From a virus (lineage: Duplodnaviria > Caudoviricetes), in the IMG/VR virus record IMGVR_UViG_3300032167_000039: 64,000 bases of DNA; one strand, given 5' to 3'. The notes beneath the pieces were generated by a model. It saw only the letters and a list, made by a program, of their open reading frames with translations. It made no database searches and was not told the DNA's origin. Of this stretch, positions 9,901 through 31,068 are shown piece by piece. Each line of letters starts with the position of its first letter. Position 1 is the stretch's first letter. The translations under genes and the position numbers were made by a program.

Positions 9901-12900
9901 CTTACGGCAATGATTCCTACGGTAATTTCTGTTGCTACAACAATGGGCGCATCAATGGCAGCAGCAACGGCGGGAATTTCTATACTTGTTACAGTATTAA
10001 TAGCTGGTGCTGCAGCGTTAGTTAAATGGACTCAAAATACTATTGAACAAAAACAAGCACAAGCAGAGAATGCAAATGTTTTATTTAGAACAAGAAAAAA
10101 TATAAAAGTTTTAACAGAAGCCCAAGAAAAATTAAATGAAACTTTATCTGAAACAAATGCAGAATTAAATAAGCAGAAAGATCAATATGAATTACTTACT
10201 AAAAATGAGAAAAAATTAAAAGAATATCATGAAGCATTAATATTAACTGTTGACGAGCAAGAAGATTATATAAGTACAAGTAATGAAATTGCTGAAAGTT
10301 TTCCTCAATTAATTGATTATTATGATGAACAAGGCAACGCAATATTAAAGATGGGAGAAGCATGGGAAGAAGCAAAAAATCAACAAAGAGAATATTATGC
10401 TGAAGCCAAAACAGAACAATCTAAAGCGCAACTAGCTGTAGAATCAAATAAAATGTCTTTACTAGAACAGCGACAGTTAGAAATGAGTGAGTCTGCAAAA
10501 ACTGTGAAAGATTTTGAAAAACAAATTAATGTAATTAGTGGAATGGACCGTTTGGAAGCATTTTATTTAGATGTGGCCTCAGAATGGAATGGAGAAGAAT
10601 ATAAAACTGCTACTTCTCTTGAGAATTATGGTAGAACTCTGATTAATGGTATAATTTCCATGGGGGCAATTCCTGGTATTACTGTAGCAGACACTGCTCT
10701 TGGAAACGAATCTTTGATGAGTGTAATGACGGGCTATAAAGATAATTTAAAAGGAGATCCTGACCAGATAAATGATTCTATAAATATGGCCAATGTTATT
10801 CGAAAGGCAATGATTGACCAAGGTTTTACTGAATTTAATGAACTTTCTGATGAAGAAGTATTTCAAAAATGGATAGACACAATAAATGATAATCCAGAAT
10901 TAGCTAAAAAATATCAAGAAGCATTGAAAAGAGGAACAGATGCTTTAATTGAACAAGGAGATTTAAGTTCAGAACTTAATGATGAGATATCCAAACAAAA
11001 AGATGCTATGGATGACGCACTTTCGGATATTGCTGCTAGTAGTTTAGCTATGTCAGAAAATTATACAGATGCTTCCTTAAATGTACAAGAATTAATGAAA
11101 GAATCTTTAAAAAATAATTCAAATATAGACTGGAGCGATTTAGAACAAGATTGGGAAAATAGCGTTGAGTATAAGATGTATTATAATTCTAACGGGGACC
11201 CTATATCTACCGACGAAGGAGCAGAAGAGAGGGCGCAAGCGGCAAAAAATGAATGGATATATAAAAATGCTATATCAGAAGAAGAAGCTCAAGCTGTTCT
11301 AGACTTGTATGATGAGGAAACTCAAAAATATATTGATCAACAATATTATGCAAAATTAACAAATCTGACAATAAAAGAAAGGGTAAAATTAATACAAGAA
11401 TTAGAAGTGGAAGACGAAATAAAAGAAGATTTACTTTCTGTTGAAGATGAAAATATTGAAGCATATAATAAATCGATAGAGGAAATGGCGACTCTTTTTG
11501 GGGCTTCAACTACTCTTTCTGATGGACTATTAACGATTTTAGATCCCAATCTTCAATATATAGAGCAATTTTCCGAAGATTTTAGAAAAAATTTCTCAAA
11601 TACAATAAAAGATTTGAGCCAAGAAGAAAGAATTATTTTTCAGTCACAATTCGGCAATCTATTGTCGGGACTTTCGCTTACTGAAGAGGAAGCTTCAGCA
11701 TTATTTGGAATAGATTGGTCTACAGTAAATTTTTCAAATGAAAAAGAGATGAAAGATAAGATTGCTCAAAGCTATGAAGAAGCAACGGGCGAAGCTATTG
11801 ATGAAGAAAGATTATCTTATTTATTTGAAAATATGCAGGAATTTTCAGAAAAACATGGTATTATAGACTTAACATTACAAATTCCAGAAGCTCAATATGA
11901 CAAATTAAAAGAAGATTTAAATTCTTTAAGCGGAATTGGAGATACAATTACTTCTGCAATTTCTGAAAGCTTAGAGCAAGGTTTTGTAGGTTCTGATACT
12001 TTAGCTTCTCTTCAAGAAGCTTTTGGAGAAGATCTTGAAAAATATTTGACAATAGATAAAGACACTATGTTGGCCACTTTAAATATTGAAGCAATGGATG
12101 AAGCATTTTATGAGGAACTTGCATCTATTCAATTAGCAAACGATGAAATTTATCAAGAAAAGATGGCTAGAATAGAAGTGTTAGAAACTATTCGAAATCA
12201 AGTAGATGCTCTTGGGGAAGTTGCTAGCGCTCAAAATGTTATTAATGCTCTAATCCGAGATTCTAGCCTTGACATTGAAAAAGCAAAAGCTCAATTTGGA
12301 CAAGATATTTTTAACTTAAATGTAGAAGAAATTGATCAAATGATAGAAGCAGAAAGAGAGTCTGCCGCAGAATATGTTAAACAACATGCTTTATATAATA
12401 CACTCGTTGCCACCGCAGCAACAGAATATGAGTCAGCAGCGACTGAAGCGATGAATAATGCACAAGGCGCCACAGAAGACGCGACAGAAGCTCTTAAAGA
12501 ATATGAAGAAACTTTACATGGAACAGCGGAATGGTTGGATGAACAAGATCCATTTATTGCTTTAACTGAGAGTATTTCTGTTTTAGAAAAGGAATTAGAA
12601 AAATTACAAAAACAATTAGAAAATGTACAAGACCCTTCTTCCGCAAGCGAGCTAATTAATGCTATAAGTCAAAACCGTATTACTCAATTAGAAAATTTAA
12701 CTGCACAGCAAAGAGCAGCAGAATCACAATTAACTCAATTAAGAGATTTTTATTTAAATAGTGAATATCAAAAATATTATACTGAACTTCCTAATGGAAC
12801 AATAAGTTTTGATATGGCAGAATGGGCAGAAACAGGTGGTTCAGATGAAATGGGCGATTGGCTCATGGAAATGGCCGCAATGGGAAATGAAGCACGATTA

Positions 12901-14472
12901 ATGTTATTAGAAACAGAATCTCAAATGCAAGAGATTTATGATGAGCAAGAAGAAGAAAGAATAGAAAGATTAGAAAATTATATTAGTTTGCAAGAAACAA
13001 TAGCAGATACTTTAAGAGAAAATGCAGAAGAAGAAGTTAATATACAAAAAGAAAAATATGATGCACTAAAAGAAGCAGATGATGATTACTTAAGTGCACT
13101 AGAAGATGCAATAAATAAACAGAGAGAGCTTAGAGAACAAGAAAATGCATACGAAGATTTGGCACAGAAAGAAAAGAAATTAGCTTTACTACAAAGAGAT
13201 ACATCTGGAGCCAATGAAAAAGAAACAAAAAAACTTGAAGAAGAAATTCAAGATGATCGTCAACAATTACTTGATGATAAAGTAGATGATATTATTGAAA
13301 ATCTAAAAAGCACATATGAACTTCAAGCAGAAGTAAGAGATTTAGAAATAGAACAAAAAGAAATCGCTTTAGAAGAAAAAAATTATATCAGTGAAGCTGC
13401 AAATATTTTAAGAAATATGACTGGTGGTTCAGATATTATTGCTTGGATGATTGAGAATAATAAAGATTGGGATACTTATACAACAGAACAACAAGAAAAG
13501 TTTATTAGTGAATGGGAAAAATTAGGCAATGATTGGGCAACATATCTTGCGCAAGAGGAAACCGAGTATAATGATTTTTTATCTTTGAGCGAGACAAATA
13601 TTCAGGCTTATTTGAACAATACTGCATCTGCCATTACAGATTCAATTGATAGGATAAAGAAAAATGAAGAAGCAGCACAAGCAGAGAGAGAAAAAAAAGC
13701 TCAAGAAACTATTGATAATATAAACAATATATCTGATACTGCATTGAAGGCTTCTCAAAAGATTAAGAAAGCAATGCAGGGATTAAATGATGAAGAAAAT
13801 GTTGAGAAAATAAATTATAATAGTCTTACTAAATCAACCTTAACTGGTACTGCTCGAGATGAAGCTTATAAATCTATGTACAATGCAGCGAAAGGAAAAA
13901 CAAATTTATCGGAATTTTTAAAAAATTATAGTTCAAATCAAGATTTAGCATCTCAAGCCTGGCAAGCTGCGCGAAAAGAGGAGGCAAATTCTTATTCTCA
14001 TGGTATACTTTGGCCAGATGGAACTATTTCTCCTCATGAAACCGCACAAGTAGCAATAGATTCAATTGAAGAAATTTTAAAATCAACTCCACAGAATGGA
14101 AGAGACGGTCAATTAAAGATGTGGGCAAATACTGACAACTACCAAGTATTTAAAAAAGGTGGATTTGTAGACTATACTGGTCCTGCTTGGGTAGACGGCA
14201 CTCCCAATAAACCTGAGGCATTCTTATCTGCTGAAGATACTGCTCGTATTGGCGCCGCCGCGAAACTTCTTGCAGATTTACCAATCTTTAATACTACATC
14301 AAATGCCGAAAATGCTGTTTCTACAAATATTGGAGACACCTCAATCGAAATTCACATTAATGTAGAGAACATTAGTGATGATTATGATGTTGATCAAATG
14401 ATTGAGCGAGTTAAACAAGACATTGTCGATGTTGCAAAACCAATTGGCACATCAGTTATCCTAAATAAATAA
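6913..14472 (+). CDS. Tail tape measure protein
   Basis: 2519 aa, Ala/Glu/Gln-rich helical sequence. TP901-like core (ELDKSFANIAMVT..TMKLATLAG..IGTAMKTIIARF), hydrophobic segments, C-terminal KGGFVDYTGPAWVDG..PEAFL motif. Confidence 0.92.
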   Translation: MAGKTYVQKIQFQSSFDGAEVLSGLKKIRQSMSNAGADASLFKGVDKDIAQAEKLVTDLLAQIQKGFSNPKEIANFEKQFEKLGSSLSKINVGLQGVNEVGNFNLNAAEIQKYTKELDKLTAKQGQLEQAAKDSIAAQLDAAKLTQKERQAIMDEVEAQGDLEAAIKKVAQAKEKAAKAKHGTKAMEEGSGREYIDTKVDVGLTADDVGATAKKGNVKRGKNDARARDAAGNLIKSDGKNQIDELKTNIALQESYKKALEEVVRTGGTADDAVELMKKSMGEYGIELTETTQLLYNFQHEIEDFYTDNLSSQQHAAITRAQSLGRTNIDGQFELSQQGQEIVDNADMQAAQQNLGAIRQAQEQVNAEIQEGERATEQFVQEQTQGLEQAQQAQEDLERSAKESTEKMKEQAEATTAMNNKFDDMKQAVKTFLSIGSAIGAVRNIISQTFNDIKELDKSFANIAMVTSYTVGQMWNSYEQYAQMANELGQSTQSVIEASGLFYQQGLDTAESLALTEDTMKLATLAGTDFAEATSQMTAALRGFKMEMDEGARVTDVYSELAAKAAADVQGIAYAMSKTASIAESAGMEFETTSAFLTQMIETTQEAPENIGTAMKTIIARFTELKTNVAGTADSEFEDLDYNKVDTALKSVGVSIKDASGQFRDLDDVFLELSGKWNTLDRNTQRYIATIAAGSRQQSRFIAMMDNYERTIELVNTAYNSAGKSSEQFNKYQDTIEYKLNKLKNSWEQLRVSFFNSKGYGDAIVLLTKLLDKVREFELVDFAALGAVWLTLGKIVIQNFIRGIQSSTNGIIKVFSATFDKVKNSVMNKIGMRIPLDLSPQMAEARINALRQKLQSLEAEKIELDANPTPALRDLALIQQRLDELQLDATQIKFTPSGKAYYEDAQGKRQSFQVNGQRVTKNQFNAAQNAGQQRANLNNEADSTAALLGDAEKNKQMAQVRGQAIGQSFAVAFTAATTSVVMRENPGQVFGDVVVSGLTAMIPTVISVATTMGASMAAATAGISILVTVLIAGAAALVKWTQNTIEQKQAQAENANVLFRTRKNIKVLTEAQEKLNETLSETNAELNKQKDQYELLTKNEKKLKEYHEALILTVDEQEDYISTSNEIAESFPQLIDYYDEQGNAILKMGEAWEEAKNQQREYYAEAKTEQSKAQLAVESNKMSLLEQRQLEMSESAKTVKDFEKQINVISGMDRLEAFYLDVASEWNGEEYKTATSLENYGRTLINGIISMGAIPGITVADTALGNESLMSVMTGYKDNLKGDPDQINDSINMANVIRKAMIDQGFTEFNELSDEEVFQKWIDTINDNPELAKKYQEALKRGTDALIEQGDLSSELNDEISKQKDAMDDALSDIAASSLAMSENYTDASLNVQELMKESLKNNSNIDWSDLEQDWENSVEYKMYYNSNGDPISTDEGAEERAQAAKNEWIYKNAISEEEAQAVLDLYDEETQKYIDQQYYAKLTNLTIKERVKLIQELEVEDEIKEDLLSVEDENIEAYNKSIEEMATLFGASTTLSDGLLTILDPNLQYIEQFSEDFRKNFSNTIKDLSQEERIIFQSQFGNLLSGLSLTEEEASALFGIDWSTVNFSNEKEMKDKIAQSYEEATGEAIDEERLSYLFENMQEFSEKHGIIDLTLQIPEAQYDKLKEDLNSLSGIGDTITSAISESLEQGFVGSDTLASLQEAFGEDLEKYLTIDKDTMLATLNIEAMDEAFYEELASIQLANDEIYQEKMARIEVLETIRNQVDALGEVASAQNVINALIRDSSLDIEKAKAQFGQDIFNLNVEEIDQMIEAERESAAEYVKQHALYNTLVATAATEYESAATEAMNNAQGATEDATEALKEYEETLHGTAEWLDEQDPFIALTESISVLEKELEKLQKQLENVQDPSSASELINAISQNRITQLENLTAQQRAAESQLTQLRDFYLNSEYQKYYTELPNGTISFDMAEWAETGGSDEMGDWLMEMAAMGNEARLMLLETESQMQEIYDEQEEERIERLENYISLQETIADTLRENAEEEVNIQKEKYDALKEADDDYLSALEDAINKQRELREQENAYEDLAQKEKKLALLQRDTSGANEKETKKLEEEIQDDRQQLLDDKVDDIIENLKSTYELQAEVRDLEIEQKEIALEEKNYISEAANILRNMTGGSDIIAWMIENNKDWDTYTTEQQEKFISEWEKLGNDWATYLAQEETEYNDFLSLSETNIQAYLNNTASAITDSIDRIKKNEEAAQAEREKKAQETIDNINNISDTALKASQKIKKAMQGLNDEENVEKINYNSLTKSTLTGTARDEAYKSMYNAAKGKTNLSEFLKNYSSNQDLASQAWQAARKEEANSYSHGILWPDGTISPHETAQVAIDSIEEILKSTPQNGRDGQLKMWANTDNYQVFKKGGFVDYTGPAWVDGTPNKPEAFLSAEDTARIGAAAKLLADLPIFNTTSNAENAVSTNIGDTSIEIHINVENISDDYDVDQMIERVKQDIVDVAKPIGTSVILNK

Positions 14473-19700: not shown

Positions 19701-19791
19701 TAATAGAAGTAATTTATATGTGTTATTTATCAACGATATTTATTATGGTGTTTTCTGGTTGGAAAAAAATAAAGATGGGGGCGATGAATAA
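16762..19791 (+). CDS. Tail hub/Tal-like protein, N-terminal part (start uncertain)
   Basis: Follows Dit. LKREIKGTNTLTFDMP..YEFYIKSI..FTCQDSFIDELS resembles the N-domain of prophage tail endopeptidases. Confidence 0.6.
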   Translation: MKGVAILKKEYELSIWNEELSSEGIKTEKKGMVIGAHDMDYLGRATNIKLKREIKGTNTLTFDMPVKYFDSHLGEYVKNEFIDDLYNEQKLKLNYNGRWYEFYIKSIGEKKQFKSIVKSFTCQDSFIDELSRTGYEILIDEQVYNSVDEITPFMEEILEDSIWDYRADFNWGDFTEFKEERFYKIPLEQFGGSIKGYPIRLSISISDLKAEEYKNLSDKEKEEKLTITNVYTKENRSLELGDDLSHQYEIFWDPHNNSNGFDLLSEGAEELIGGYIYVPYSDLSFIYGSIYEDPYKSTEEPATYGPYGTQKGFALQPSSKDSTDFIQFIYFKDDDEVLIDESGTIANNNCHYLISIEDWNNMLKQQFNGEAAIHWTSPMIEEANGITETEKYKTAIDGEIKYTTNALPSSSTIDDFTWYPVYYEGYLSEINETEVFAARKISITNRTEFNLKAEYYTTIYNNDWKDYSSLYSEEIPNEEIDFRVQSMEETRIITPTLARNLITNGTEITSNDGWETLVQNDQTEYNTGSYANLLEISVKSTTQNDTSYNPNGSVIDEEISDYYLELLSPNVDNCNDFAAEGSVVGDYALNFGLTELENGIEKDKVYAIRICTGAWVVDDYTIVFRTKDEAGEDIVNNNCTERDAQDYENALITYNNALNSNEIGLTINDTEQEFKDLLLSWISDHDAATISQFEKWINVYTDNDWRYLVGRINDEETSEYPILEDNAHERWSSQCIYKNQSFIKSYNTDLDRVYIAQGSIDINGNYELSGINNNGTDYISFKDVFEVAENVSCVGRDGVFDKKQVLTKTYYHNKVNGNWIWEEAFSKEDSVEDNAFLLFKAKTNIKNPYLGIYIESQKMQVSIDKCQISLYKETDTNGIKFETLSINEKDGKEYYVENAVYRIYEANSNNFSSDYLKELGLIDDSGNVVTNPSLKEDTLNFKDGYLLNTASPIWTANSTSAIPLFFTLMENPIVNEERIDNRSNLYVLFINDIYYGVFWLEKNKDGGDE

Positions 19792-22700
19792 TGGCGGATG
19801 CTTTAAAAAAGATAACATTAAGTATAAGTAATTATGATAGGTATACAAATAAAAGCGATTTTGAAAATATTAAAAAAGACGAAATTATTTGTTTGGGAAA
19901 ACCTATCTATACAAGAAATGTTTTTAAATCAAATAAAATAACTGAACAAAGTAATAGAGTTATTCTTTTTATTCGAGCAGATAAGGATCTTTCTCAAGAT
20001 TATGACATAAAAACATCAATTAGTTCGCGATATTTATCTGCATATAATGAAGATAATGGGACTGGAGAGTTGTATCGACTTGATGCCAATGGTGGCGCTT
20101 CTGATTATTTTTTACTTTCTTCTTCTTCAAGAGAATTAAGTACAAATGAAGCACTTTATTCAGCTGTAAGACAAATTGAATCAATATATTATAATATTAT
20201 TGTACAGAAAAAAACAAAAGGTGTTTATTGGTCTTATTTTGATGAAAAAAATAATTTTCAAGGTTTATATTGTCTAGAGCAATATGTTAAAGGTGCGCCG
20301 GTCACAACATTAGATGAATTAAAAAGACTTGCTGGAGCAGATTCCAACAATGGTAATGGCTTCTTCTTAAATGCTGGCGTTTACCAAGATGGAAAAAAAT
20401 TAACTGATAAGAATATATATTTTGTTATTCAATGGGATCCAAAAGCAAAATTTTCTACATATGGAACGGGACATATTACATCAATTGGTTTTGATGGAGA
20501 TGTTTTAAGTGATTTAAAATCAATAACAGCAGAATCTAATCCTAAAAAATATATTTTTGGTAAAATTGATCCATCTGTGACTTGTGGCTATAAATTTATA
20601 AAAGGAGGACAGTCTAGTCAAGTTTCACTTAATGATATAATTCAAGAACTAGAAAATGGAGAATACCCTCTTAATAATAATAGTCCTACCAATCAAGATT
20701 ATGGAGATAATAGCATTACAGTAGAGAAAGATCCAATTACTGGTGTTCCTACAAATACTACTATTCCTAGAGAGTATATTACTAACTTTTCCGCATATAA
20801 ATTAAAATTTCGCGGCGGTATGGATGAAAGACAAATTGTTAATGATTTTTTTGACAATGAAAAAGATAAGTATGATATTAACAAAGATACCTTAATTATT
20901 AAACCAAAAATACATAAAGAACAGTTTAGTATTTCCTCAAAAATGATTCTTACTGATACATATTATTCATATTTAAAGATGAATGATACAGTTGTATCAA
21001 TTGAAGAGTTTTTTAAAGAGTTGGACTCAATTCTTGATTTAAAACTCGGTAAGGGAGAAAGTGGATGGAACAGTGGTCACTCTCCTATATCAGAAGATAG
21101 CTGGGAAAGACTTCCTATGACTGCATGTGCAGTATTAAAAAAGGATTATGAAATAGTGATAAAAAATAATAAAGAAAATAAACAAGAAATTACAATAGAT
21201 GACTTTAAAGATTATAAAAAATATAGTTTATCAGAATTTATTCTTAATGAAAATAGAAAAGATTATTATCTTCTCTTTTTTGATGTTAAACAATTTGAAA
21301 CTGGTTATATAATGATACTTTCTAAGAATAGAAGTCTACAGGCTTTTCTTGAGGCAATTAATCCTTTTATTATTTATAAAAATAAAAAATCTTACAATTG
21401 TAATTTAAGTTTTTCTCAATTGAGAAATTCTCTTAATCTTTACTCTTTAGAACTAATGGAAGCATATACTCGTGGTCACGATTTTATTCAAGAAAATTAT
21501 ACTACCGTTAGAGCTAAAGAAATAGATAGCAACAATAAAAGAGTAATGTCTTATAACGATAACTATTTTACATATAAATATTCTGGTCGAGATTTTGATA
21601 TAATGAAAAATAATTTCACATTTTCAAATGGCATCGCCGCCACACCAGTAAGAGAATGTGATTTGTTGCTAGAAACTGATGTAACTCTTGGTGATGCATA
21701 TGGACATAATAAATACTTTATTGAATATATTAAATATGGAAATAATGAATATAAAGACACCTTTAAGATAAAAGATTATTTAGAAGCAATTGACGCAACC
21801 AAATACACCGAAGATGATTTAAAAATTATTACTTCATACATTGATTTAAATCATTGCGAGTATTATAATCCGCTTTCTGCAAAATTTGAAAATGGATGGA
21901 GCGATTGTTGTTACGGAACAAATGGAGAATACAAGAAAGAGTGTGTTTATCAAAAATTAGGATATTGTCCTTATCGTTTTTCAACGGAAAAACATCCTCG
22001 TCGTATTAGAACTTTGGCGGCGGAAAAATCAAATAGATTTAATATAATTCAAGAATTAAGCAAGGTCTTTGAAATTTATCCTCAATTCTATATTGAATTT
22101 GATAAAAATGGAAAAGTAATTTTAGACGATAATGGTAAAATGAAGAAACATGTTTTCTTCATTACTGAAAAAGGAAATATAAATCAACTTGGATTTAGAT
22201 ATGAGAAAAATTTAAAAGACATATCTAGGACAGTTGATTCATCTGCATTAACAACAAAACTTTTCGTAGCAGATGTTGATAGCGAGCTATCTAAGACCGG
22301 GCTTTGTTCGATTCAAACCGCAGAAGATAACTTATCAAAAACATCCTACATTTTAGATTTCTCATATTATACAAAAATGGGAATACTAAATGCAGAAAAA
22401 ATAACAAGAGATTTATTTGGAATTGAAGAAGGTGACTTTGCTTTCTTGCCTACTATTGGTTATTATAATACTCAATATGATAAATTAAGTAATTTAATAA
22501 TTAATTTAACGGGAGAGACGATGACACAATTAGAAGCTGAAAACATTACAAATATTGAAGGAGTTACAGCTTCACTTGTTGAAAAACAAAAAATAAGTCA
22601 GCAGATGTATCAATTTAAAGTTTCTTCTTATAAAGATGGAGAACATGAATATACAATTTCTGATACCTACAAAAATTACTTGACAAAAATGAAGGAACAA

Positions 22701-25700
22701 TCTACAATCCTCTGGGGATTAATTGAAACTTTATTCTTTACTGGAGATTATTTCACAGATGCTAGAAATCCAGAATCGCCCGTACAAATAAGGATCTCAG
22801 ATGCAAGTGATTATTTTGGCGCGCCGGCGCAAGATAATTTTTGCAAAGGGGAATATTTCTGGAGACTTTTCATTGATGGATTTGAAGATTCAGATTATGT
22901 TCCTTATTTTTCAAGTTGGGAGAAGTTCAAAGAAGAAATATTGGATAAGTATTTATACCCAATAAATGGTAAGGTTGGCCAGTATGCAGACATGAAAAAG
23001 CAAGTGAATGTCTGGAAGAAAGAACGTGCTAAATGGTTAAATAAAATTAATGATATCTCAGAAATTTTTTATAAAAAATATGAGCCATTCTTAAAAGAGG
23101 GCACATGGACAGACGACAATTATCTTACGGATAATGAGTATTATTGGGCGGCGGTAAGTGTATTGAACGATTCTTCTCAGCCTAAAATTACTTATAATAT
23201 TAGCGTTATAGATCTAAGTACACTAGATAAAGACTATAATTTTGACGTTGCAGATACCTCTTATGTTGAAGATATAGATTTCTTTGGTATTAGTCAAAAG
23301 ACAGGCTTACCTAATAAGCAAAAGGTTCTTATTTCAAGTGTAACCGATGATTTGGATAATCCAATGAATAACTCAATTGAAGTAAAGAATTATACTTCTT
23401 CTTTTGATGAATTATTTGAATCAATTAGTGCTTCTGTACAATCTTTAACATTTAATGAGAACACATATAAAAGAGCCTCTAATTTTACCGCAACAAAATA
23501 TATTTCAAAAGAAGCTTTGCAAGGTACTTTATTTGATGGAGACATAACTCTCGTTGACCATTATAGTGAAAATATTGTCATGGATGATGAGGGCGTACAG
23601 GGTAAAAATATCAATAATACTGCGTTGGGCTATAAACTAAATGGAGAAGGATTACTATTTACAAAAGATAATGGACAAACTTGGGATATTGGCGTAGGAC
23701 CTAATGGTATTAACGCCGATTACATTAAATTTGGACAATTAGATGCCTCAAAAATTCAAATTGTTGATGGAAATTATATTTATTTCTTATGGGATAAAGA
23801 TGGTTTAAATGCTTATCGTAACCCTGCAACAAGCACAAATGGTTTAGTTGATTTTGCCCGATTTAATAAATATGGTTTAAGCTTAATTGAAAATAATAAT
23901 GTTCGTTTGCGCGCGGGATATGAATTTAAAAACGATAACAATAGAAATTACTCTGGCGATTATAAGACTGAATTGGATTTAATTGATCAGAATATTGGTT
24001 TTTATTTGTATAATGATAAAGGCCAAGCTATTTTCAAAACTGAAACAGCATCAGATTATTCCGGAGAAGAGGGCGACTATTCTGCAAGACTGTCTCTAAC
24101 GGGAGAAATGTTTATTACAAACAAAGTATTAGACGGAGAGAATACAGGTCAAAGTTTAAATACAGTTTATGTCTATAATTATAATAATGCTCTGGCCATT
24201 GAAAAAATGAATGCATTTTACTTTACAGACAATGAAAGATATACAAGTTACTATAATGAATTTATTAAAACACAAGATATTAATGGCTTAGGAACAATTG
24301 TTGTAGGGAAGACATTGATACAAGAGGAAGAAGACTTCTATTTTGAAATTGTTGAAGCGGAGAATTTAGAAATTTGGACTGATGTAAAATTAACTAATAA
24401 AAACTACAATATTGAATATCAAAAAACAAATCAAAACTCAGTTAAGAAATTAGACCCATCCCAATGGGCGGCTTACGCAATGTCTTTTACTTCTTATGAA
24501 ATAACAAAAGAAGAATTAAACACTTTAGATATTCAAAATGGTCGAATTTATTTGTCAAATATTCTTGCAATATTGGAAAATAGAAATGGAATACTTCGTA
24601 CAGGGGAGACCTTATATTTATTCCAGAGCGTTAAAACAGACACCTTTGACTCTGATGTTATTGTTTATGAAGGTAGTGTACAACAGTTAATGTTTTGTAC
24701 CGCAAAAAATACAAATGCCTCTTTGAAAACATACTCACAAGATCAGAATAAAATTCCTGTTGAATACTATGATATTGTAGGATTATCAATTGGAAATGAA
24801 GTAGAAATGATAGAACAATTATTTTATTTTCAAGAAGGACAAATAGATGGTATTAAATACAACTATTGGAGAAATCAAGAATACACGGGAGAATCTTTTG
24901 AAACGGATTATTCTGATATAGAAACGCAAGAAGTTGGAATATTCATTAATAATAAAGCAGGACTGCAGGACGAATATACGATCTCTCCTTCTAATGAGAT
25001 TCAGAGCCCCGCAACATATATGCGAAACAGAAGTGGCGGAATTAATATCTATGCTGATGATTTCATTATAATTGGAGATTCCATTACTAATGGTTTAAAT
25101 AATATAACAATATCTGGTGAAACATTTAAAAATGCATATGGAGTTATTGGCGCAGGATTTTCTGAGGAAACAATTAAGATTGAAAATATTCCATTAGCAG
25201 GAAAGAAAAATTTAGCCTTCTTTTTGGGAATGAATGATCCATATGAAGAGGATGACACTGATGAAACTTATGTTGACGAGTATTTAAATTTAATTTCTAA
25301 TGTTGCTGCCTTAGCAGAGGAAATTAATAGTATTTCTGTTGTTTCAATTATTGCAGCAGATGAAAAAATAATTGATGAATATAAAGAAATTACAAATGTG
25401 AACATAGAAAAAAGGAACAATGCAATAAAAAGTTTAGCCGAAAAAACAATTCAAGGAGTGCCTATTCAATATATTGATATTTATACAATTTCAAAAAATT
25501 ATGAGCATTCAGATAGAGTACATCTATCTTCAAATGGAAATATTTCATTATTAAAATCTCTTGATAAAGTATTTAATAATGAAGATTTAGATCAAAGTGT
25601 TATTTATAATCCAGATGTTAAAGAGGCCGCGGCAGAAGCACAAGCTGGAGCTGAACGTGTGTTTACAATTGCTTTAAAAGGTAAAGATAGTGGCGGTCAA

Positions 25701-26012
25701 ATAGTATATAATAATATTATTACTGTACTTAAAAATGGCTATCTTTATATGGGCGGCGAATTATTAAATTACTATGGTAAAAAACTTAATATGAAAGATT
25801 TTAAGTTATTGCCCGATAAAATTAGGGTTTCAAATCCTCAATTTATTTTATCAAATTCTGGTTATATGTGGATGGATTGGGGCAAGATGTACCAGATTTC
25901 TGACGGTAATCTTGCTATGGATAAGTCTCTATTGGATATGATCACTACATTAGGATCAATGGGAAGCTCATCTTACACCAGTGGATACTATTTAATAGAT
26001 CCGCTTAGTTAA
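19791..26012 (+). CDS. Tail hub/spike protein, C-terminal part, with SGNH hydrolase domain
   Basis: KSNRFNIIQELSKVFE..FRYEKNLKDISRTVDS..TTKLFV (Tal-like), GINADYIKFGQLDA spike motif, and SGNH blocks GDSIT, GMND and DRVH. Confidence 0.7.
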   Translation: MADALKKITLSISNYDRYTNKSDFENIKKDEIICLGKPIYTRNVFKSNKITEQSNRVILFIRADKDLSQDYDIKTSISSRYLSAYNEDNGTGELYRLDANGGASDYFLLSSSSRELSTNEALYSAVRQIESIYYNIIVQKKTKGVYWSYFDEKNNFQGLYCLEQYVKGAPVTTLDELKRLAGADSNNGNGFFLNAGVYQDGKKLTDKNIYFVIQWDPKAKFSTYGTGHITSIGFDGDVLSDLKSITAESNPKKYIFGKIDPSVTCGYKFIKGGQSSQVSLNDIIQELENGEYPLNNNSPTNQDYGDNSITVEKDPITGVPTNTTIPREYITNFSAYKLKFRGGMDERQIVNDFFDNEKDKYDINKDTLIIKPKIHKEQFSISSKMILTDTYYSYLKMNDTVVSIEEFFKELDSILDLKLGKGESGWNSGHSPISEDSWERLPMTACAVLKKDYEIVIKNNKENKQEITIDDFKDYKKYSLSEFILNENRKDYYLLFFDVKQFETGYIMILSKNRSLQAFLEAINPFIIYKNKKSYNCNLSFSQLRNSLNLYSLELMEAYTRGHDFIQENYTTVRAKEIDSNNKRVMSYNDNYFTYKYSGRDFDIMKNNFTFSNGIAATPVRECDLLLETDVTLGDAYGHNKYFIEYIKYGNNEYKDTFKIKDYLEAIDATKYTEDDLKIITSYIDLNHCEYYNPLSAKFENGWSDCCYGTNGEYKKECVYQKLGYCPYRFSTEKHPRRIRTLAAEKSNRFNIIQELSKVFEIYPQFYIEFDKNGKVILDDNGKMKKHVFFITEKGNINQLGFRYEKNLKDISRTVDSSALTTKLFVADVDSELSKTGLCSIQTAEDNLSKTSYILDFSYYTKMGILNAEKITRDLFGIEEGDFAFLPTIGYYNTQYDKLSNLIINLTGETMTQLEAENITNIEGVTASLVEKQKISQQMYQFKVSSYKDGEHEYTISDTYKNYLTKMKEQSTILWGLIETLFFTGDYFTDARNPESPVQIRISDASDYFGAPAQDNFCKGEYFWRLFIDGFEDSDYVPYFSSWEKFKEEILDKYLYPINGKVGQYADMKKQVNVWKKERAKWLNKINDISEIFYKKYEPFLKEGTWTDDNYLTDNEYYWAAVSVLNDSSQPKITYNISVIDLSTLDKDYNFDVADTSYVEDIDFFGISQKTGLPNKQKVLISSVTDDLDNPMNNSIEVKNYTSSFDELFESISASVQSLTFNENTYKRASNFTATKYISKEALQGTLFDGDITLVDHYSENIVMDDEGVQGKNINNTALGYKLNGEGLLFTKDNGQTWDIGVGPNGINADYIKFGQLDASKIQIVDGNYIYFLWDKDGLNAYRNPATSTNGLVDFARFNKYGLSLIENNNVRLRAGYEFKNDNNRNYSGDYKTELDLIDQNIGFYLYNDKGQAIFKTETASDYSGEEGDYSARLSLTGEMFITNKVLDGENTGQSLNTVYVYNYNNALAIEKMNAFYFTDNERYTSYYNEFIKTQDINGLGTIVVGKTLIQEEEDFYFEIVEAENLEIWTDVKLTNKNYNIEYQKTNQNSVKKLDPSQWAAYAMSFTSYEITKEELNTLDIQNGRIYLSNILAILENRNGILRTGETLYLFQSVKTDTFDSDVIVYEGSVQQLMFCTAKNTNASLKTYSQDQNKIPVEYYDIVGLSIGNEVEMIEQLFYFQEGQIDGIKYNYWRNQEYTGESFETDYSDIETQEVGIFINNKAGLQDEYTISPSNEIQSPATYMRNRSGGINIYADDFIIIGDSITNGLNNITISGETFKNAYGVIGAGFSEETIKIENIPLAGKKNLAFFLGMNDPYEEDDTDETYVDEYLNLISNVAALAEEINSISVVSIIAADEKIIDEYKEITNVNIEKRNNAIKSLAEKTIQGVPIQYIDIYTISKNYEHSDRVHLSSNGNISLLKSLDKVFNNEDLDQSVIYNPDVKEAAAEAQAGAERVFTIALKGKDSGGQIVYNNIITVLKNGYLYMGGELLNYYGKKLNMKDFKLLPDKIRVSNPQFILSNSGYMWMDWGKMYQISDGNLAMDKSLLDMITTLGSMGSSSYTSGYYLIDPLS

Positions 26013-26026
26013 AGGAGTTGAAGGTA

Positions 26027-27493
26027 ATGGCAAATTATTATTATCATCCACTTGGAGATTATGCAATAAATTATCTTAACGGGGACGCGCCGGCAAACGC
26101 GCGTCCTCACTCTTATTCATCACACGGATATAGTAAATTAGACTGGGGTTGTGGGGCAGACCAACCAGTTTACTCAATGACCGATGGAACGATTACTACT
26201 ATAGCTTGTCGAAATAGTGAAAAGCAAGCCGGACTTGTTGTTATAGTAAAAACAGACCGTCATGATGAACATGGCCCAATATTTATCAATTATCTTGAAA
26301 TGGGTGGTGTATCTGAGAGAATTGCCAATATAATAAAAAATGATATTGGAATTGATATTACTCCAGGACCAGGGAGTTTTGGCCCAATTAATGCTTCTGG
26401 AATACCAGATTTTACTCATTCAGATGGAGAAACTTTTATACAACGAGGAGAATTAATCGGATACACAAATAGACATTATTCAAGTTATTCTGCATTACAT
26501 TTAGACTTCACTTATGGCGACGGCTATAGCCATACTCTTGGAAGTACAGACAGAAATACTTGTTTTAATAGTCCATCTGGTACTCCTCACATAACAGATT
26601 TTTCAAAAATTAATGAAGCTTTTTCTATAAATAATGGAGAAGTAAGTGTAAATGATAACCTATTGTGGAAAAATGGAATTTATGTTCCAGATAAAGATGG
26701 AGCAAACTTACATTATAAAACAACAGATAGTTTAAGTTATTTAATTTGTTTGCAAAGACCTGTTTTTACTTCTTCATCTTCTGCTTCGGGACAAGTGGCT
26801 TTATCTTCTTCTGGAGTAGCTTTTGTAGAGAATATGAATCCAGATGCAGTTAATGCTTACTTTAATAAATTGATGTTAGATAGTTGGATAGGCCCATATC
26901 CAAATTCTATTAGTGATGTAAATGCAAATGATGGGCTTCGAAGAGCAGTAGTTCTTTGTACTCGAGAATTAAATTTTACTAGTAAAGGCAATCTTCCGGC
27001 AGTTGCTTACGCAAAATTGCTTAGAGCAAAAATGATTGGAGAATCTCGTAGCGGAAATAATATGGGAGAATGGTTTGCTGCACTGCCCGCAAATCAGTTT
27101 GCAGAAAAAAATGTATGGATGAATAAACAACTTTCTTCGAGTTTTGATTTATCTTATGCACAGGCGGTGTACAATAATTTAAAACGTCCAGAATTATATG
27201 GAAGCTGGTATGGCAGCACAGACGATCCTTTTTATCGAGCTATTGTGCATGCTTGTCAGCAAATACCAATATATAATGTTACAGATGGAGAATATAGACG
27301 ATATTTATTATATACTCCTTGGGCTTTTGGAATATGTTATCGTCCAGATAGCGGGATCGATTATTCTGTTTACGCTACTGGAAAACCAATCTATAACTTA
27401 AGAGGAAACTATATTGCTGGATATAATGATTATATTCTTTTTCGACAGGTTAATGGAGATATGAAATATTATAATTCTAAAGTTTGTGGGTGA
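26027..27493 (+). CDS. Virion-associated protein with degenerate M23 peptidase-like domain
   Basis: LDWG..QPVYSMTDGTI..IQRGELIGYT..ALHLDF follows the M23 layout, but the Zn-ligand motifs are imperfect. Confidence 0.5.
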   Translation: MANYYYHPLGDYAINYLNGDAPANARPHSYSSHGYSKLDWGCGADQPVYSMTDGTITTIACRNSEKQAGLVVIVKTDRHDEHGPIFINYLEMGGVSERIANIIKNDIGIDITPGPGSFGPINASGIPDFTHSDGETFIQRGELIGYTNRHYSSYSALHLDFTYGDGYSHTLGSTDRNTCFNSPSGTPHITDFSKINEAFSINNGEVSVNDNLLWKNGIYVPDKDGANLHYKTTDSLSYLICLQRPVFTSSSSASGQVALSSSGVAFVENMNPDAVNAYFNKLMLDSWIGPYPNSISDVNANDGLRRAVVLCTRELNFTSKGNLPAVAYAKLLRAKMIGESRSGNNMGEWFAALPANQFAEKNVWMNKQLSSSFDLSYAQAVYNNLKRPELYGSWYGSTDDPFYRAIVHACQQIPIYNVTDGEYRRYLLYTPWAFGICYRPDSGIDYSVYATGKPIYNLRGNYIAGYNDYILFRQVNGDMKYYNSKVCG

Positions 27494-27500
27494 TGTTATT

Positions 27501-27878
27501 GTGTTAATAAATAGAAATAAATTAAATCAAATCGACGCTTTAATTGATCAATTATCAAAAAAAAGATTTGATATTCATATTCAATATAAATTTATAAAAA
27601 TAAGAAAAGCAATAAAGGAAGAAGAAGAAATTTATCAAGAGCAGATTAAATTAAATTGCGAACCTTACTTTGAAAAAGACCAATTTGGTAATCCAATCAT
27701 GAATGAACAAGGAGGCTTTAAGATTTCTTCAGAGAAGATTAATGAATGTTATTTACTAATGCATCAAATGAACTCCTTAGATATTCAGATTCCAGATATA
27801 TATTTTTCATTAGATGAATTGGAAAAGTTAGATCTTACTCTTGGTGAACTTTCTTTATTAGAGCCTTTTATTAAATGA
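27501..27878 (+). CDS. Hypothetical phage protein, last gene of the tail operon
   Basis: GTG start after GGGTGA (track start 27486). Small helical protein. Confidence 0.6.
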   Translation: MLINRNKLNQIDALIDQLSKKRFDIHIQYKFIKIRKAIKEEEEIYQEQIKLNCEPYFEKDQFGNPIMNEQGGFKISSEKINECYLLMHQMNSLDIQIPDIYFSLDELEKLDLTLGELSLLEPFIK

Positions 27879-27902: not shown

Positions 27903-27964
27903 ATGACAAGACAAAATTATACTTTTGTGTAAAAAGTAGAAATTTTTCGTCTTGTCATTTTTTT
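27903..27964 (+). terminator. Long inverted repeat with T tract ending the tail operon
   Basis: ATGACAAGAC (27903-27912) pairs with GTCTTGTCAT (27949-27958), followed by a T run. Confidence 0.6.
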
Positions 27965-28049: not shown

Positions 28050-28481
28050 ATGTCTTTTAATTATTCAAATCAAAATCAACAAGCTTTTTATAACCCTACA
28101 ACTGCCACGGCGCCACCAACGCAGTTTCAACAACAAAATGTCCAACCTCTATTCCCTCAGCCACAAGGAAATGTTTACAACATCAATTCAACACTTGAGG
28201 TTGCAAACGTTCCTGTGGGTGCAGGCGTTTCGGTTGCTCTTTGTTTACAAGAAGGTCTTATGTATATTAAAACAATGCAAAATGGAAATCCAATGTTTTG
28301 GGCGTATAAAATAATGCCTTTTGACACAACAAAGAATCAGCCTGAATCAGAAGAAAAGAAAGAAGATAATCCTTTTGCGGCACAGTTTGAAAAATATGAT
28401 AACAGATTTAATAAAATAGAGCAGCAAGTAGGAGAGCTTCAAAATCTAATAAAGAAGAATAAAGGAGAGTGGTCAGTATGA
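28050..28481 (+). CDS. Cassette gene 1: Gln/Pro-rich N-terminus, small beta domain, C-terminal coiled coil
   Basis: SD GAGGTG; ORF track. Confidence 0.8.
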   Translation: MSFNYSNQNQQAFYNPTTATAPPTQFQQQNVQPLFPQPQGNVYNINSTLEVANVPVGAGVSVALCLQEGLMYIKTMQNGNPMFWAYKIMPFDTTKNQPESEEKKEDNPFAAQFEKYDNRFNKIEQQVGELQNLIKKNKGEWSV

Positions 28482-28714
28482 TGAATATGAATCCAATGCA
28501 GTTTATATCTCTTTTGCGTGGCCGCAACCCGCAAGAAATGGTAATGTCTATGGTACAAAATAACGGAATTAATGATCCGATGATTAATGAGCTTATTGGA
28601 TATGCTCAAAAAGGAGATATTAATAGTGTAACTAAAATCGCAGAAAACTTTTTTGGACAGAGAGGACAAAATTTTGGTCAGGAATTTAATGCTTTCATGT
28701 CCATGTTAAAGTAA
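28478..28714 (+). CDS. Cassette gene 2: small Met/Asn/Gln-rich helical protein
   Basis: ATGA coupling with gene 1; NPMQF..NPQEMVM repeats. Confidence 0.75.
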   Translation: MMNMNPMQFISLLRGRNPQEMVMSMVQNNGINDPMINELIGYAQKGDINSVTKIAENFFGQRGQNFGQEFNAFMSMLK

Positions 28715-28760
28715 TTGCGATTTAAAATAAAAATTTTATAATTTAAAGGAGGTCTTGTTT

Positions 28761-29678
28761 ATGGAGGAAAAAGGTCTTACAGTAGCAGATGCGTTGGCAC
28801 TTAGAGAAGGTGGTAACGGAGGTAATTATGGCGACGGTATGTTTGGAGGCAACGGCGCATGGTGGGTAATTATCTTAATTCTTTTCTTCGCTATGGGCGG
28901 TAGAGGTTTTGGTAACGGCTACGGCGGAAATGGCGGCAACGATTGTGGAGGTGTGAATACAGTGGTAGTACCAGCAGGTCTTGGTGGCTTTGGTGGAGGC
29001 TACGGCGGTTATAGTCCATGTTGCACACCAGCCACACAACAGTCAATGACAGATGCATTCAATTTTAATCAATTAGATAATGGACAGAGAGGTTTAGAGA
29101 GAGGTTTGTGTGATGGTTTCTATAGTGTAAATCTTGGTATTACAAATCTTGGTACGCAGATGCAGCAAGGTTTCTGTGCAACTGATAGAGCTAATCTTCA
29201 GAGCTTTAACGGTATCCAGTCAACTCTTTGTCAGGGATTTAGCGGCATAGACGCAGCTATCGCCCAGACAAATTACAATCTTAAGGATTGTTGCTGCGAT
29301 ACAAGACAGGCAATCACAGAAAATAGATTTACAACTCAGACAGGATTTAATGCTCTTCAGAATCAGCTTGCTTCTTGCTGTTGCGATCTTGGTAGAGGTC
29401 AGGAGAACATTAAGTATGCTCTTGCTCAGCAGACTTGCGACATTATTTCTAATGCTGATAAGAATACCGATAGAATTATCAATCATCTTGTTCAGTCTGA
29501 AATGGAAAAACTTAGAACAGAACTTCAGTCTGCTCAGTTCCAGCTTTCACAAAACTCTCAGACACGCGCTTTAATCGAGCAATTACAGCCTTGTCCTAAG
29601 CCAGCTTATTTAACTTGCTCACCTTATACAACTTATCCTCAGCCTTTTAGCGGATTCGGTAACGGCTGCGGCTGTTAA
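28761..29678 (+). CDS. Cassette gene 3: Gly-rich membrane-anchored coiled-coil protein with CCC motifs
   Basis: SD AAGGAGGT. Hydrophobic segment AWWVIILILFFAM flanked by Gly-rich tracts, DCCCD and SCCCD motifs, heptad-like region, C-terminal PCPKPAY..GCGC. Confidence 0.85.
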   Translation: MEEKGLTVADALALREGGNGGNYGDGMFGGNGAWWVIILILFFAMGGRGFGNGYGGNGGNDCGGVNTVVVPAGLGGFGGGYGGYSPCCTPATQQSMTDAFNFNQLDNGQRGLERGLCDGFYSVNLGITNLGTQMQQGFCATDRANLQSFNGIQSTLCQGFSGIDAAIAQTNYNLKDCCCDTRQAITENRFTTQTGFNALQNQLASCCCDLGRGQENIKYALAQQTCDIISNADKNTDRIINHLVQSEMEKLRTELQSAQFQLSQNSQTRALIEQLQPCPKPAYLTCSPYTTYPQPFSGFGNGCGC

Positions 29679-29692
29679 GGAGGGGATGCTAT

Positions 29693-30097
29693 ATGGGATG
29701 CCCCAATAATTCAAAATACCTTTGTGAGAGAGTAATTCTCTCACAAGCGGTAACTTTTGCAGGAGATACTCTTACTATCAATATTCCTGCCGGCTCATAT
29801 GGCAATAAAGAAAAGTATTGTTTAATTGTAGCACAAGAGATTCCAGATGAAACAACCATCGCGGCAACTGTAGTGATTACAATTGGTACCGATACAACAG
29901 AGTATCCTTTATTGACTTGCTGTGGTTCAGAAGTTACTGCGGGACAGATTGAATATCGAAGAAAATATCCAGTAGTTGTTTGTACAAGTATTGCTTCAGG
30001 CGCTTTCAGAATTACTGAAAAAATCTGTTGTGGTAGAACTCTTGTCGCACCAGCTCTTCCTATTGAGGCTGCAGCTGCTGGTGGTGCGGAGGGATAA
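29693..30097 (+). CDS. Cassette gene 4: Cys-containing beta-rich protein
   Basis: SD AAGGAGGGG; alternating beta-strand pattern and CC pairs. Confidence 0.8.
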   Translation: MGCPNNSKYLCERVILSQAVTFAGDTLTINIPAGSYGNKEKYCLIVAQEIPDETTIAATVVITIGTDTTEYPLLTCCGSEVTAGQIEYRRKYPVVVCTSIASGAFRITEKICCGRTLVAPALPIEAAAAGGAEG

Positions 30098-30100
30098 TGT

Positions 30101-30679
30101 ATGGATAAGTTAATGGAAAAGGTTAAAAAAGAACTTGAAAATATTGCTGAAAAAGGTTTAAGTGCTTCTAATTTAGAAACTACTTATAAACTAATTGATA
30201 TTTATAAAGATATCAAAGAAGCAGAATATTATGAGAGCGAAATTAAAGAAGAGCAAGGAGGTGACTATAGTATGCCTCAGAGAAGAGATAGTAGAGGACG
30301 CTATATGAATGATGGATATGATAGATATTATGATCCAATGATGCATGGTGGTTATGACAACAGAGGTTATGATAACAGAGGTTATGATAATAGAAGTGGC
30401 CATGGCGGCACATGGGAAGCGCAAGGAAGATACAATAACTATCCTTTCTTAGATGAGCGTTCTGAACGCTATATGGAGCGCATGATGGAAGGCATGGATG
30501 CCTATAATGAAGGTCGTGATAGATATCGCCATGGAGAGAATGATACTCGCATGATGGATGGTATTGAAATGGCCATGGCGGCAGTGTGTATGTTTGTAGA
30601 ATCAATTGCTGAATTTGCAGAAACACCAAAGGAAAAAGAAATTATTAGAAAACATCTTGAAAAAATGAAGAAAATCTAA
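30101..30679 (+). CDS. Cassette gene 5: helical termini with Arg/Gly/Tyr/Asp low-complexity core
   Basis: SD GGAGGG; RRDSRGRY motif and three GYDNR repeats. Confidence 0.8.
   Translation: MDKLMEKVKKELENIAEKGLSASNLETTYKLIDIYKDIKEAEYYESEIKEEQGGDYSMPQRRDSRGRYMNDGYDRYYDPMMHGGYDNRGYDNRGYDNRSGHGGTWEAQGRYNNYPFLDERSERYMERMMEGMDAYNEGRDRYRHGENDTRMMDGIEMAMAAVCMFVESIAEFAETPKEKEIIRKHLEKMKKI
30350..30394 (+). repeat. 3 x 15-bp tandem repeat encoding GYDNR
   Basis: ggttatgacaacaga / ggttatgataacaga / ggttatgataataga. Confidence 0.9.
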
Positions 30680-31041
30680 TGTGGGAATATTATAATGCCA
30701 ATCCTTTGGGACGCAATGTAAATGATTGCACAGTACGAGCGATATCACTTGCCACAGAAAAATCATGGGACGAAACGTATAAAATATTATCTGAATATAG
30801 TAGATTGCAGGGGATCACTTTTTCAGAAGTGGAGTTTATAAATGACTTTCTTGCTGACCGCTACGAAAGATTTTGTCCGCCGCGAAAAACGGAGACAATA
30901 AGAGATTTCATGAATATGAAGCTTGACGGAAGATGGCTGATAACGATGCGCGGACATATTACTTGTGTAGTTGATGGGATTTTATACGATACTTTTGATT
31001 GTTCAGAAAATTTTATATGGTGTATTTACAAAGTAAAATAA
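30679..31041 (+). CDS. Cassette gene 6: putative papain-like (Cys-His-Asp) peptidase
   Basis: TAATG coupling. NDCTVRAIS..GHITCVVDG.LYDTFD gives the C-H-D order seen in C39-like folds. Confidence 0.6.
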   Translation: MWEYYNANPLGRNVNDCTVRAISLATEKSWDETYKILSEYSRLQGITFSEVEFINDFLADRYERFCPPRKTETIRDFMNMKLDGRWLITMRGHITCVVDGILYDTFDCSENFIWCIYKVK

Positions 31042-31068
31042 AAAGGGAGCAGACTTCTGCTCCCTTTT
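31041..31068. terminator. Bidirectional terminator at the convergent strand switch
   Basis: AAAAGGGAGCAGA-ct-TCTGCTCCCTTTT. Confidence 0.9.

Follow-up and report, generated by a model that had tools for sequence, protein, structure and literature searches.

A portable six-gene cassette of gut phages encodes a cysteine-studded stalk protein with a hydrophobic head, a small all-beta protein and a minimal papain-fold peptidase

We analyzed a six-gene cassette in a 64,000-nucleotide (nt) stretch of viral DNA (IMG/VR record IMGVR_UViG_3300032167_000039; Duplodnaviria, Caudoviricetes), referred to here as the window. Judging from its open reading frame (ORF) listing and from family searches, the window represents the late arm of a large phage that is uncultured. 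The cassette consists of six co-oriented genes, numbered 1 to 6 in what follows (Table 1), with intergenic gaps of -13, 40, 14, 3 and -1 nt. GGAGG-type Shine-Dalgarno (SD) sites are found 5' of genes 1 to 5. Gene 6 has no such site, and its start lies within the stop of gene 5 (TAATG), which indicates that gene 6 is translationally coupled to gene 5. A first-pass annotation, made from the DNA letters, had described six tightly spaced or coupled genes with strong SD sites; the spacing and the coupling are as described, and the SD sites are present for genes 1 to 5, but not for gene 6. The same annotation had placed the cassette between two terminators, and both were recovered. The upstream hairpin is unusually stable (folding free energy -20.4 kcal/mol, z -5.1; none of 200 shuffled sequences was as stable in RNA folding) and closes the tail/lysin transcription unit; because of its long loop, it was not caught by a simple terminator scan. 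The downstream terminator is bidirectional, with a stem of 12-13 bp that includes 6 GC pairs, and with T-runs on each strand. The higher GC content of the cassette relative to the tail genes was likewise reproduced (0.386, versus 0.317 in the tail arm and 0.324 in the minus-strand arm; 0.432 in gene 3 alone). The phage-specific promoter motif seen elsewhere in the genome does not occur 5' of the cassette, and a DNA-level search of phage records gave no match.

The six genes are conserved together. Viral contigs were scanned with a profile of gene 3, which gave 59 loci, and partners were identified by iterative profile searches on the ORFs of these loci. The order gene 1, gene 2, gene 3, gene 4 (or a BclA_C-like gene in its place), gene 5, gene 6 recurs in 59 IMG/VR loci and close relatives; close relatives of this phage carry all six genes in the same order. 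Gene 1-like proteins were found in 72 loci, and gene 2, 4, 5 and 6 proteins in 65, 59, 53 and 49 loci, respectively, with the order nearly always kept. A core of genes 1 to 4, often accompanied by gene 5, is also present in unrelated phage backbones, at differing genome positions (Table 1). Thus, the genes behave as a unit, as first supposed, and the unit is portable. Homologs of gene 3 extend further, namely to many crAss-like phages, the cultured Bacteroides uniformis phage C3_41T2LP, Clostridium perfringens phages and two Methanomassiliicoccales viruses. In the Bacteroides, crAss-like and archaeal viruses, the neighbors of gene 3 are a small beta protein, a beta-plus-coiled-coil protein, an Arg/Asp/Tyr-rich protein, a DUF7841 protein and a small HExxH peptidase. 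A direct comparison of gene 4 with the protein that follows gene 3 in Bacteroides phages gave an hhalign probability of 1.9%. A scan of bacterial genomes identified only 10 loci, in metagenome bins; several of these are on very large contigs, possibly whole phage genomes, and no host could be assigned from them.

No standard family accounts for any of the six proteins. Pfam and NCBIfam gave no match for any of them, PHROGs returned only families of 'unknown function', and sequence searches of the PDB gave nothing beyond noise, which for gene 1 was coiled-coil noise only. In the ESM Atlas, genes 3 and 1 are found only in viral 'hypothetical' clusters. The claim that no known head, tail, lysis or replication function explains these genes therefore stands.

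Gene 3 encodes the stalk protein. Its translation most likely starts at the ATG at position 28761, and not at 28755 as in the ORF listing, because the SD spacing fits this codon and homologs begin with MEEKG. From the N-terminus onward, the protein comprises a conserved helix motif, an Asn/Gly spacer and a Gly-flanked hydrophobic helix (WWVIILILFF); these are followed by a repeat-rich stalk in which CC and two CCC motifs occur, by the conserved C-terminal segment PKPAY...SPY and by GCGC at the end. The protein has 17 Cys in all, and its Gly-flanked helix, its two CCC motifs and its GCGC end are as originally reported. An alignment of homologs (A1) shows conservation of the N-terminal motif, the hydrophobic helix, the CCC motifs and the C-terminal segment; the short repeats in mid-stalk differ in number. 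The Gly-Gly after the N-terminal motif is not conserved among the homologs.

The hydrophobic helix distinguishes gene 3 from its partners. Measured over 15 residues, the median hydrophobicity is 2.18 for gene 3, versus 0.6-1.4 for every partner; that is, gene 3 alone within the cassette has a strongly hydrophobic helix resembling a membrane anchor, in line with the anchor that had been proposed. The products of genes 1, 2, 4, 5 and 6 have no N-terminal hydrophobic export signal. The N-terminal side of the gene 3 helix is acidic (Lys/Arg 1.75, Asp/Glu 4.3), and a conserved single Arg follows directly after the helix. By the positive-inside rule, these two features weakly favor a topology in which the N-terminus is outside and the stalk is inside.

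The gene 3 product is a member of phrog_16490 (E 4.9e-24), with the profile match lying over the conserved stalk. Its relatives number 2249 among 90%-identity clusters, and 1685 among the 50%-identity representatives of 1.84 billion proteins, 666 of these at E<=1e-10. None bears a functional name, and the best-listed relatives, like the ESM Atlas clusters, are viral. The crAss-like, Bacteroides-phage and archaeal-virus proteins of phrog_16490 have the hydrophobic helix, the CCC motif and the C-terminal segment in common with gene 3, and the archaeal-virus records carry this same label. The family has no assigned function; the names 'spike protein/glycoprotein' and 'outer capsid protein/viral fiber' given to some of its members are automatic.

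Some homologs of gene 3 are interrupted by other elements. At locus L072:5702-5962, the gene is split into two halves by a group I intron (Rfam RF00028, 62 bits), together with an endonuclease-like ORF. At L028:5762-5999 and L029:5258-5999, inserts of about 240 nt and about 740 nt, respectively, are located exactly at the Trp-Trp codons that open the hydrophobic helix, and the insert in L029 encodes an HNH-like ORF. Homing-endonuclease-like genes also lie beside or between cassette genes (L005:7935-8964, L027:7047-8090, L002:5053-5703 and L076:5270-5890); they include a weak DUF723 match, HNH-type ORFs and one gene annotated as I-HmuI. The homing endonucleases and the group I intron at gene 3 fit a well-conserved, mobile target, and the endonuclease genes beside the cassette may aid its movement. 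A role for gene 3 like that of Microviridae pilot proteins was also considered and dropped, because the gene 3 records of 4-7 kb are unverified linear scaffolds and not small genomes.

Gene 4 encodes a small protein that we refer to as the knob. It is rich in Cys and beta structure, as had been noted: Cys3, Cys11, Cys43 and Cys113 are invariant (alignment A2), and the AlphaFold model, which is of moderate quality (predicted local distance difference test, pLDDT, 74), is all-beta with eight strands. The best structural match of this model, and the only one above Z 5, is a bead of the Pa193 tail-fiber chain 9b45_2 (Z 5.1, root-mean-square deviation (rmsd) 3.2 Å over 84 residues); this weak likeness is a lead, not an assignment. 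C1q/TNF-like chains are not listed in the fold search, and Foldseek gave no significant match in the PDB for the gene 4 or the gene 6 model. In sister cassettes the slot of gene 4 is occupied by different small beta proteins, 7 of 10 of which match Pfam BclA_C (PF18573; best E 5.7e-9), i.e., the C-terminal domain of BclA in the exosporium nap of the Bacillus cereus group. Gene 4 was considered as a divergent BclA_C protein and rejected as such, since it has no Pfam match and hhalign gives a probability of 0.2% for A2 against A4, the profile of the BclA_C-like proteins from sister cassettes. The label 'ferritin-like', suggested by eye for partners in some sister cassettes, was discarded as it has no Pfam support.

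Gene 6 encodes the peptidase. The protein is a member of phrog_3754 (E 4.5e-23), and C17, H93 and D104 are invariant in an alignment of 22 diverse homologs (A3), which substantiates the Cys-His-Asp triad recognized earlier. In the AlphaFold model (pLDDT 91.9, predicted template modeling score 0.86), the Cys is located on the N-terminal first helix, and the His and the Asp on the beta-sheet. The top 50 structural matches (VIA-align) are dominated by papain-like (clan CA-type) cysteine enzymes. These include Josephin-2 (Z 6.7), PeiR (Z 6.5) and the C39 domains of PCAT1/ComA (Z 5.8-6.3), and the alignments to papain-like enzymes cover 95-102 residues, i.e., nearly the full length, with an rmsd of 3.3-4.5 Å. 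These data support a fold of the papain-type class; the Z values are middling, and we assign no specific family or substrate. Pfam peptidase families gave no match to gene 6. Peptidase C39 in particular was rejected, as there is no Pfam C39 match even at E<=1 and no conserved double-glycine in the gene 3 homologs. Gene 6 therefore has the fold and the Cys/His/Asp layout of papain-like peptidases such as the C39 domains of PCAT1/ComA, Josephin and the pseudomurein endoisopeptidase PeiR, but, unlike these, it stands alone at its minimal length, without a transporter or a wall-binding domain. In unrelated copies of the cassette, the last gene encodes a small HExxH-type peptidase instead of the cysteine peptidase. 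The presence of another peptidase in the same place fits a dedicated maturation step, as the first-pass annotation had envisaged.

The remaining three proteins are those of genes 1, 2 and 5. The N-terminus of gene 1 is rich in Gln, Asn and Pro; a beta core of about 55 aa follows, and an amphipathic helix forms the C-terminus. This three-part architecture is found 5' of gene 2 or gene 3 in 72 loci, unrelated phages included. The gene 2 product is small and helical, with many Met (10) and Asn residues, and the gene is located immediately 5' of gene 3 in 65 of about 75 loci; its composition and position suggest a helper or chaperone. The idea that gene 2 is present as a domain fused to the N-terminus of gene 3 in Bacteroides phages and archaeal viruses was not retained: the hhalign probability is 6%, and the two share no more than a short KG-[ILV]-D-P-like motif. 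Gene 5 belongs to phrog_28802 (E 1.1e-17); Bajarodcaudo virus 2 and Dulem virus 35 are among its 53 loci. Its two ends, a helix at the N-terminus and a helical region at the C-terminus, are conserved; between them lies the Arg/Gly/Tyr/Asp low-complexity core first noticed in the window, variable among homologs (alignment A10). In P0123 and P0124, each from a single short contig, a gene 4-like knob and a gene 5-like protein (low-complexity plus helical) are apparently fused. These fusions hint that genes 4 and 5 act together, with a gene-calling error as another possible cause.

The C-terminal end of the stalk is also found in other contexts. The last ~150 aa of gene 3, i.e., the CCC motifs and the PKPAY...SPY...GCGC segment, also terminate three longer, tail-fiber-like proteins, P0121, P0122 and P0254. 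The remaining parts of these proteins match tail-fiber PHROGs (phrog_6782, E 1.8e-6; phrog_4242, E 8e-10), a signal of which part may reflect coiled-coil composition. A virion-attachment or fiber domain on the N-terminal side was found only in these fused relatives, and such fiber-fused variants are rare. Downstream of P0121 and P0122, which are encoded directly after holin and endolysin, lie a BclA_C gene, a 73-aa gene and DUF7841; downstream of P0254 there are an 80-aa gene and DUF7841. The fusions imply that the stalk end behaves as a module that travels with the knob, and that the N-terminal attachment is exchangeable.

The time of expression was deduced from recoded relatives. Of each of the six genes, 12-22 members need TAG to be read as sense. 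In many close relatives of this phage, at L004, L007 and about 25 further loci (e.g., L021, L041 and L046), late genes stay open only with TAG as sense (Gln assumed), which applies to the tail fiber and to each of the six cassette genes; in the window itself, the standard code leaves the genes open. Because the need for TAG as sense extends to all six genes of the recoded relatives, the cassette is probably expressed late.

Table 1. Features of the window, and positions of the cassette core and of associated proteins in other viruses (L, loci of the survey)
Feature	Position	Strand	Description
Six-gene cassette	28050-31041	+	
Gene 1	28050-28481	+	143 aa; ORF with SD site
Gene 2	28469-28714	+	81 aa; overlaps the end of gene 1 by 13 nt
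Gene 3	28755-29678	+	307-aa ORF (listed start)
Gene 4	29693-30097	+	134 aa; Cys-rich all-beta 'knob'
Gene 5	30101-30679	+	192 aa
Gene 6	30679-31041	+	120 aa; stand-alone minimal papain-fold cysteine peptidase
Upstream terminator-like boundary	27903-27964	+	hairpin 27903-27958, then U7
Downstream intrinsic terminator	31041-31068	both	bidirectional; common to the cassette and the convergent minus-strand arm
Convergent arm	3' of cassette	-	begins with dUTPase and ClpP genes
Tape-measure-sized ORF	6913-14472		upstream of cassette; followed in order by the next four rows, then the cassette
Dit-like protein			
1009-aa protein			
2073-aa fiber	19791-26012		
491-aa M23-like protein	26018-27493		
130-aa protein	27486-27878		after the 491-aa protein
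Cassette core, Bajarodcaudo virus 2 and Dulem virus 35	between portal and capsid genes		
Cassette core, Dulem virus 36	after receptor-binding protein		
Cassette core, Dulem virus 39	after integrase		
Cassette core, Bajarodcaudo virus 5	after holin and lysin		
Cassette core, C. perfringens phage CPD1	early region		
DUF7841 proteins	L077:3348-3947, L078:3192-3935, L080:6188-6568, L076:8357-8758, L093:11908-12372, L095:2247-2687		
Helix-turn-helix-like or sigma-like proteins	L001:4316-4594, L011:4665-4901, L012:1866-2156, L014:3799-4149, L015:1788-1988		5' of gene 1

Taken together, these data give good support to an architecture in which a Cys-studded stalk with a hydrophobic head is joined by a knob, helpers and a protease. 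As to its function, our tentative preference is for a portable accessory module of gut phages that builds a stalk-and-knob assembly late in infection, on the inner face of the membrane, from where it would be exposed at lysis. Gene 3 would provide a long, mostly helical, Cys-studded stalk with its Gly-flanked hydrophobic helix near the N-terminus, and gene 4 a small all-beta knob, in the slot where sister cassettes have a BclA_C (C1q-like) knob. The Met/Asn-rich product of gene 2 would be a small helper, those of genes 1 and 5 would be partners that mix low-complexity sequence with coiled coil, and gene 6 would most likely trim one of the cassette proteins. Since only gene 3 is strongly hydrophobic and its partners have no export signals, the complex would be assembled in the cytoplasm, late in infection. 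The gene 3 helix would then suspend it from the inner membrane face, so that the stalk would lie within the cell and the short acidic N-terminus outside it. The assembly would meet the outside only at lysis, as a fiber-and-knob decoration on membrane debris or vesicles, and in the rare relatives in which the stalk end is fused to a tail-fiber-like protein it would ride on the virion. The remodeling of the outer envelope of the host that had been suggested initially is disfavored by the absence of export signals in genes 1, 2, 4, 5 and 6, and by the charge bias, which weakly favors a cytoplasmic stalk. The observations of the first-pass annotation are thus confirmed, and its interpretation is supported in part.

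Several points weigh against the proposed inner-face assembly. The charge bias around the gene 3 helix is weak, and the hydrophobic core is short, about 11-16 residues. In the archaeal homologs, the N-terminus is acidic and 75-80 aa long, and its translocation would be difficult in the absence of a signal. Only gene order and the fusions suggest that the knob binds to the end of the stalk; the likeness of gene 4 to the Pa193 bead is slight, and gene 4 is not a BclA_C protein, as described above. Outside the phages of Bacillota only gene 3 is demonstrably homologous, and the likeness of the partners there appears to be architectural. The fiber-like fusions and the two cassettes in head modules fit a role in the virion as well as, or better than, a role on debris. 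Lastly, we found no proteomic, expression or localization data for any member of the cassette; searches of a literature library gave no published account of the gene 3 family or of DUF7841, and none on the virion proteomes of the carriers.

Next in probability, and in our view unlikely, is that stalk and knob are carried by the virion, as an auxiliary fiber or membrane-insertion device. The Gly-rich hydrophobic head would be masked, perhaps by gene 2, until it inserts into a target membrane, in a manner similar to a fusion peptide or to pilot or ejection proteins, and gene 6 would be a virion maturation protease. In some tail-fiber modules, e.g., BppU/BppL of TP901-1 and gp37/gp38 of T4, the distal knob is encoded separately and accompanied by a small helper; the cassette shares with them the rod, the separate small beta knob and the small helper gene. 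The fusion of the stalk end to the tail-fiber-like P0121, P0122 and P0254 points in this direction, as do the knob folds, which are of the fiber-tip type, the partners without export signals, like virion parts, and the automatic spike and fiber labels in crAss-like records. The location of the cassette is compatible as well: in the window it lies in the late arm past the tail-fiber genes, and in two other phages between portal and capsid. Against this explanation, gene 3 has a hydrophobic helix where the known modules have a virion-attachment domain; we found no virion-attachment or fiber domain at its N-terminus, only the short motif and the helix. Unlike those modules, moreover, the cassette adds low-complexity partners and a protease, and moves among unrelated particles. 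The same N-terminal region is found in crAss-like phages, siphoviruses and archaeal viruses, for which a specific docking site is hard to imagine. In CPD1 and C3_41T2LP the cassette is located among early or recombination genes, and PhiCrAss001, the crAss-like phage whose virion structure is solved, is not listed in the homology searches with gene 3 and with its cr116_1 homolog.

A broader version of the inner-face assembly, which we consider doubtful and place below the virion device, is a membrane device independent of the host, in bacteria and archaea alike. The stalk-and-knob array exposed at lysis would render ghosts or vesicles adhesive or turn them into decoys, or else would remodel the membrane for egress, with the Cys triplets as redox or metal locks. 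If this were true, the cassette would represent a late phage function of a new class, common to gut viruses whose hosts span three microbial phyla.

Lower again in probability is an accessory lysis or egress device, in which gene 3 would act together with holin and endolysin, in the manner of a spanin or a holin regulator, and gene 6 or a neighboring lysin would cut the wall. Both the i-spanin Rz of lambda and the holin T of T4 have a single N-terminal hydrophobic helix followed by a coiled coil with Cys. Gene 3 recalls them in its N-terminal helix, its coiled coil and its Cys, and it too is often encoded beside lysis genes: a homolog in Suoliviridae crAss-like phages lies between holin/LysB-like genes and the endolysin, gene 3 directly follows holin and lysin in Bajarodcaudo virus 5 and in L093/L094, and the cassette of the window comes after a gene for an M23-like peptidase. 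Wall amidases and PeiR, in addition, are among the structural neighbors of gene 6. This recurrent placement may keep a role in egress alive. The carriers, however, already own ordinary holins, several copies of the cassette are distant from lysis genes, and accessory genes, too, usually land at the ends of late operons. Most holins, moreover, are much smaller than gene 3 and do not come with its four or five conserved partners. The acidic N-terminus of gene 3 has the wrong polarity for an N-in anchor, and a spanin is unneeded in the single-membrane Bacillota and in the archaea whose viruses carry the family. A two-component spanin was rejected specifically, on the basis of the acidic N-flank, the lack of a lipoprotein-like partner, by eye, in the crAss-like and Bacteroides copies, and the occurrence of the family in C. 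perfringens phages and archaeal viruses.

Improbable, and ranked below the lysis device, is a role in superinfection exclusion or lysogenic conversion, in which a membrane protein with a promoter of its own would block related phages or alter the cell surface. The insulation of the cassette between terminators suits such a unit, as do the moron-like position between lysis genes and integrase in temperate relatives and the small helix-turn-helix-like genes seen by eye 5' of several unrelated copies. Five or six genes with a soluble knob and a protease are nonetheless far more elaborate than known exclusion proteins, the need for TAG as sense in recoded relatives suggests late lytic and not prophage expression, and large phages that appear to be lytic, this one among them, carry the module.

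Remodeling of the host spore coat or exosporium, with Cys-rich and BclA-like proteins laid on the spore, is very improbable: the alternate knobs of sister cassettes, encoded beside a Cys-rich partner, do resemble BclA_C, and the Cys-, Gly/Tyr- and Gln-rich compositions recall coat proteins, but gene 4 of the window belongs to another family, collagen-like repeats are absent, and the gene 3 family, with similar neighbors, is not restricted to viruses of spore-formers, being found in the Bacteroides uniformis phage, in crAss-like phages and in Methanomassiliicoccales viruses, whose hosts do not sporulate.

The conservation and mobility of a late operon with five to six genes imply that selection can act on its function, for which current phage biology has no name. 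The cultured carriers, i.e., C. perfringens phages such as CPD1, XP41-N3 and vB_CpeS-17DYC, and the Bacteroides uniformis phage C3_41T2LP, make the question directly testable. For annotation, the gain would be a provisional common name and the correction of misleading 'spike glycoprotein' labels.

Additional proteins were observed around the cassette in other viruses. DUF7841 proteins (PF25223), often with an Arg/Asp/Tyr-rich tail, accompany the gene 3 homologs of crAss-like and Bacteroides phages as well as the fiber-fused variants (Table 1); in crAss-like records they are labeled 'RNA polymerase sigma factor/ubiquitin-like protein'. By eye, small proteins resembling sigma-70 region 4 or a helix-turn-helix are located just 5' of gene 1 in several unrelated copies (Table 1), adjoined by proteins with a transmembrane segment plus coiled coil that recall XhlA.

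In the window itself, the 491-aa protein between the tail fiber and the cassette has a weak M23 peptidase match and is a candidate lysin; its relatives show clear PF01551 matches, and in some there are two tandem copies. The 130-aa protein that follows belongs to phrog_1401 (unknown function), and no holin was identified in the stretch between the tail fiber and the cassette. The translation of the 2073-aa fiber contains a GDSITNG motif near residue 1730, which suggests an SGNH-type esterase domain in the C-terminal part of this protein.

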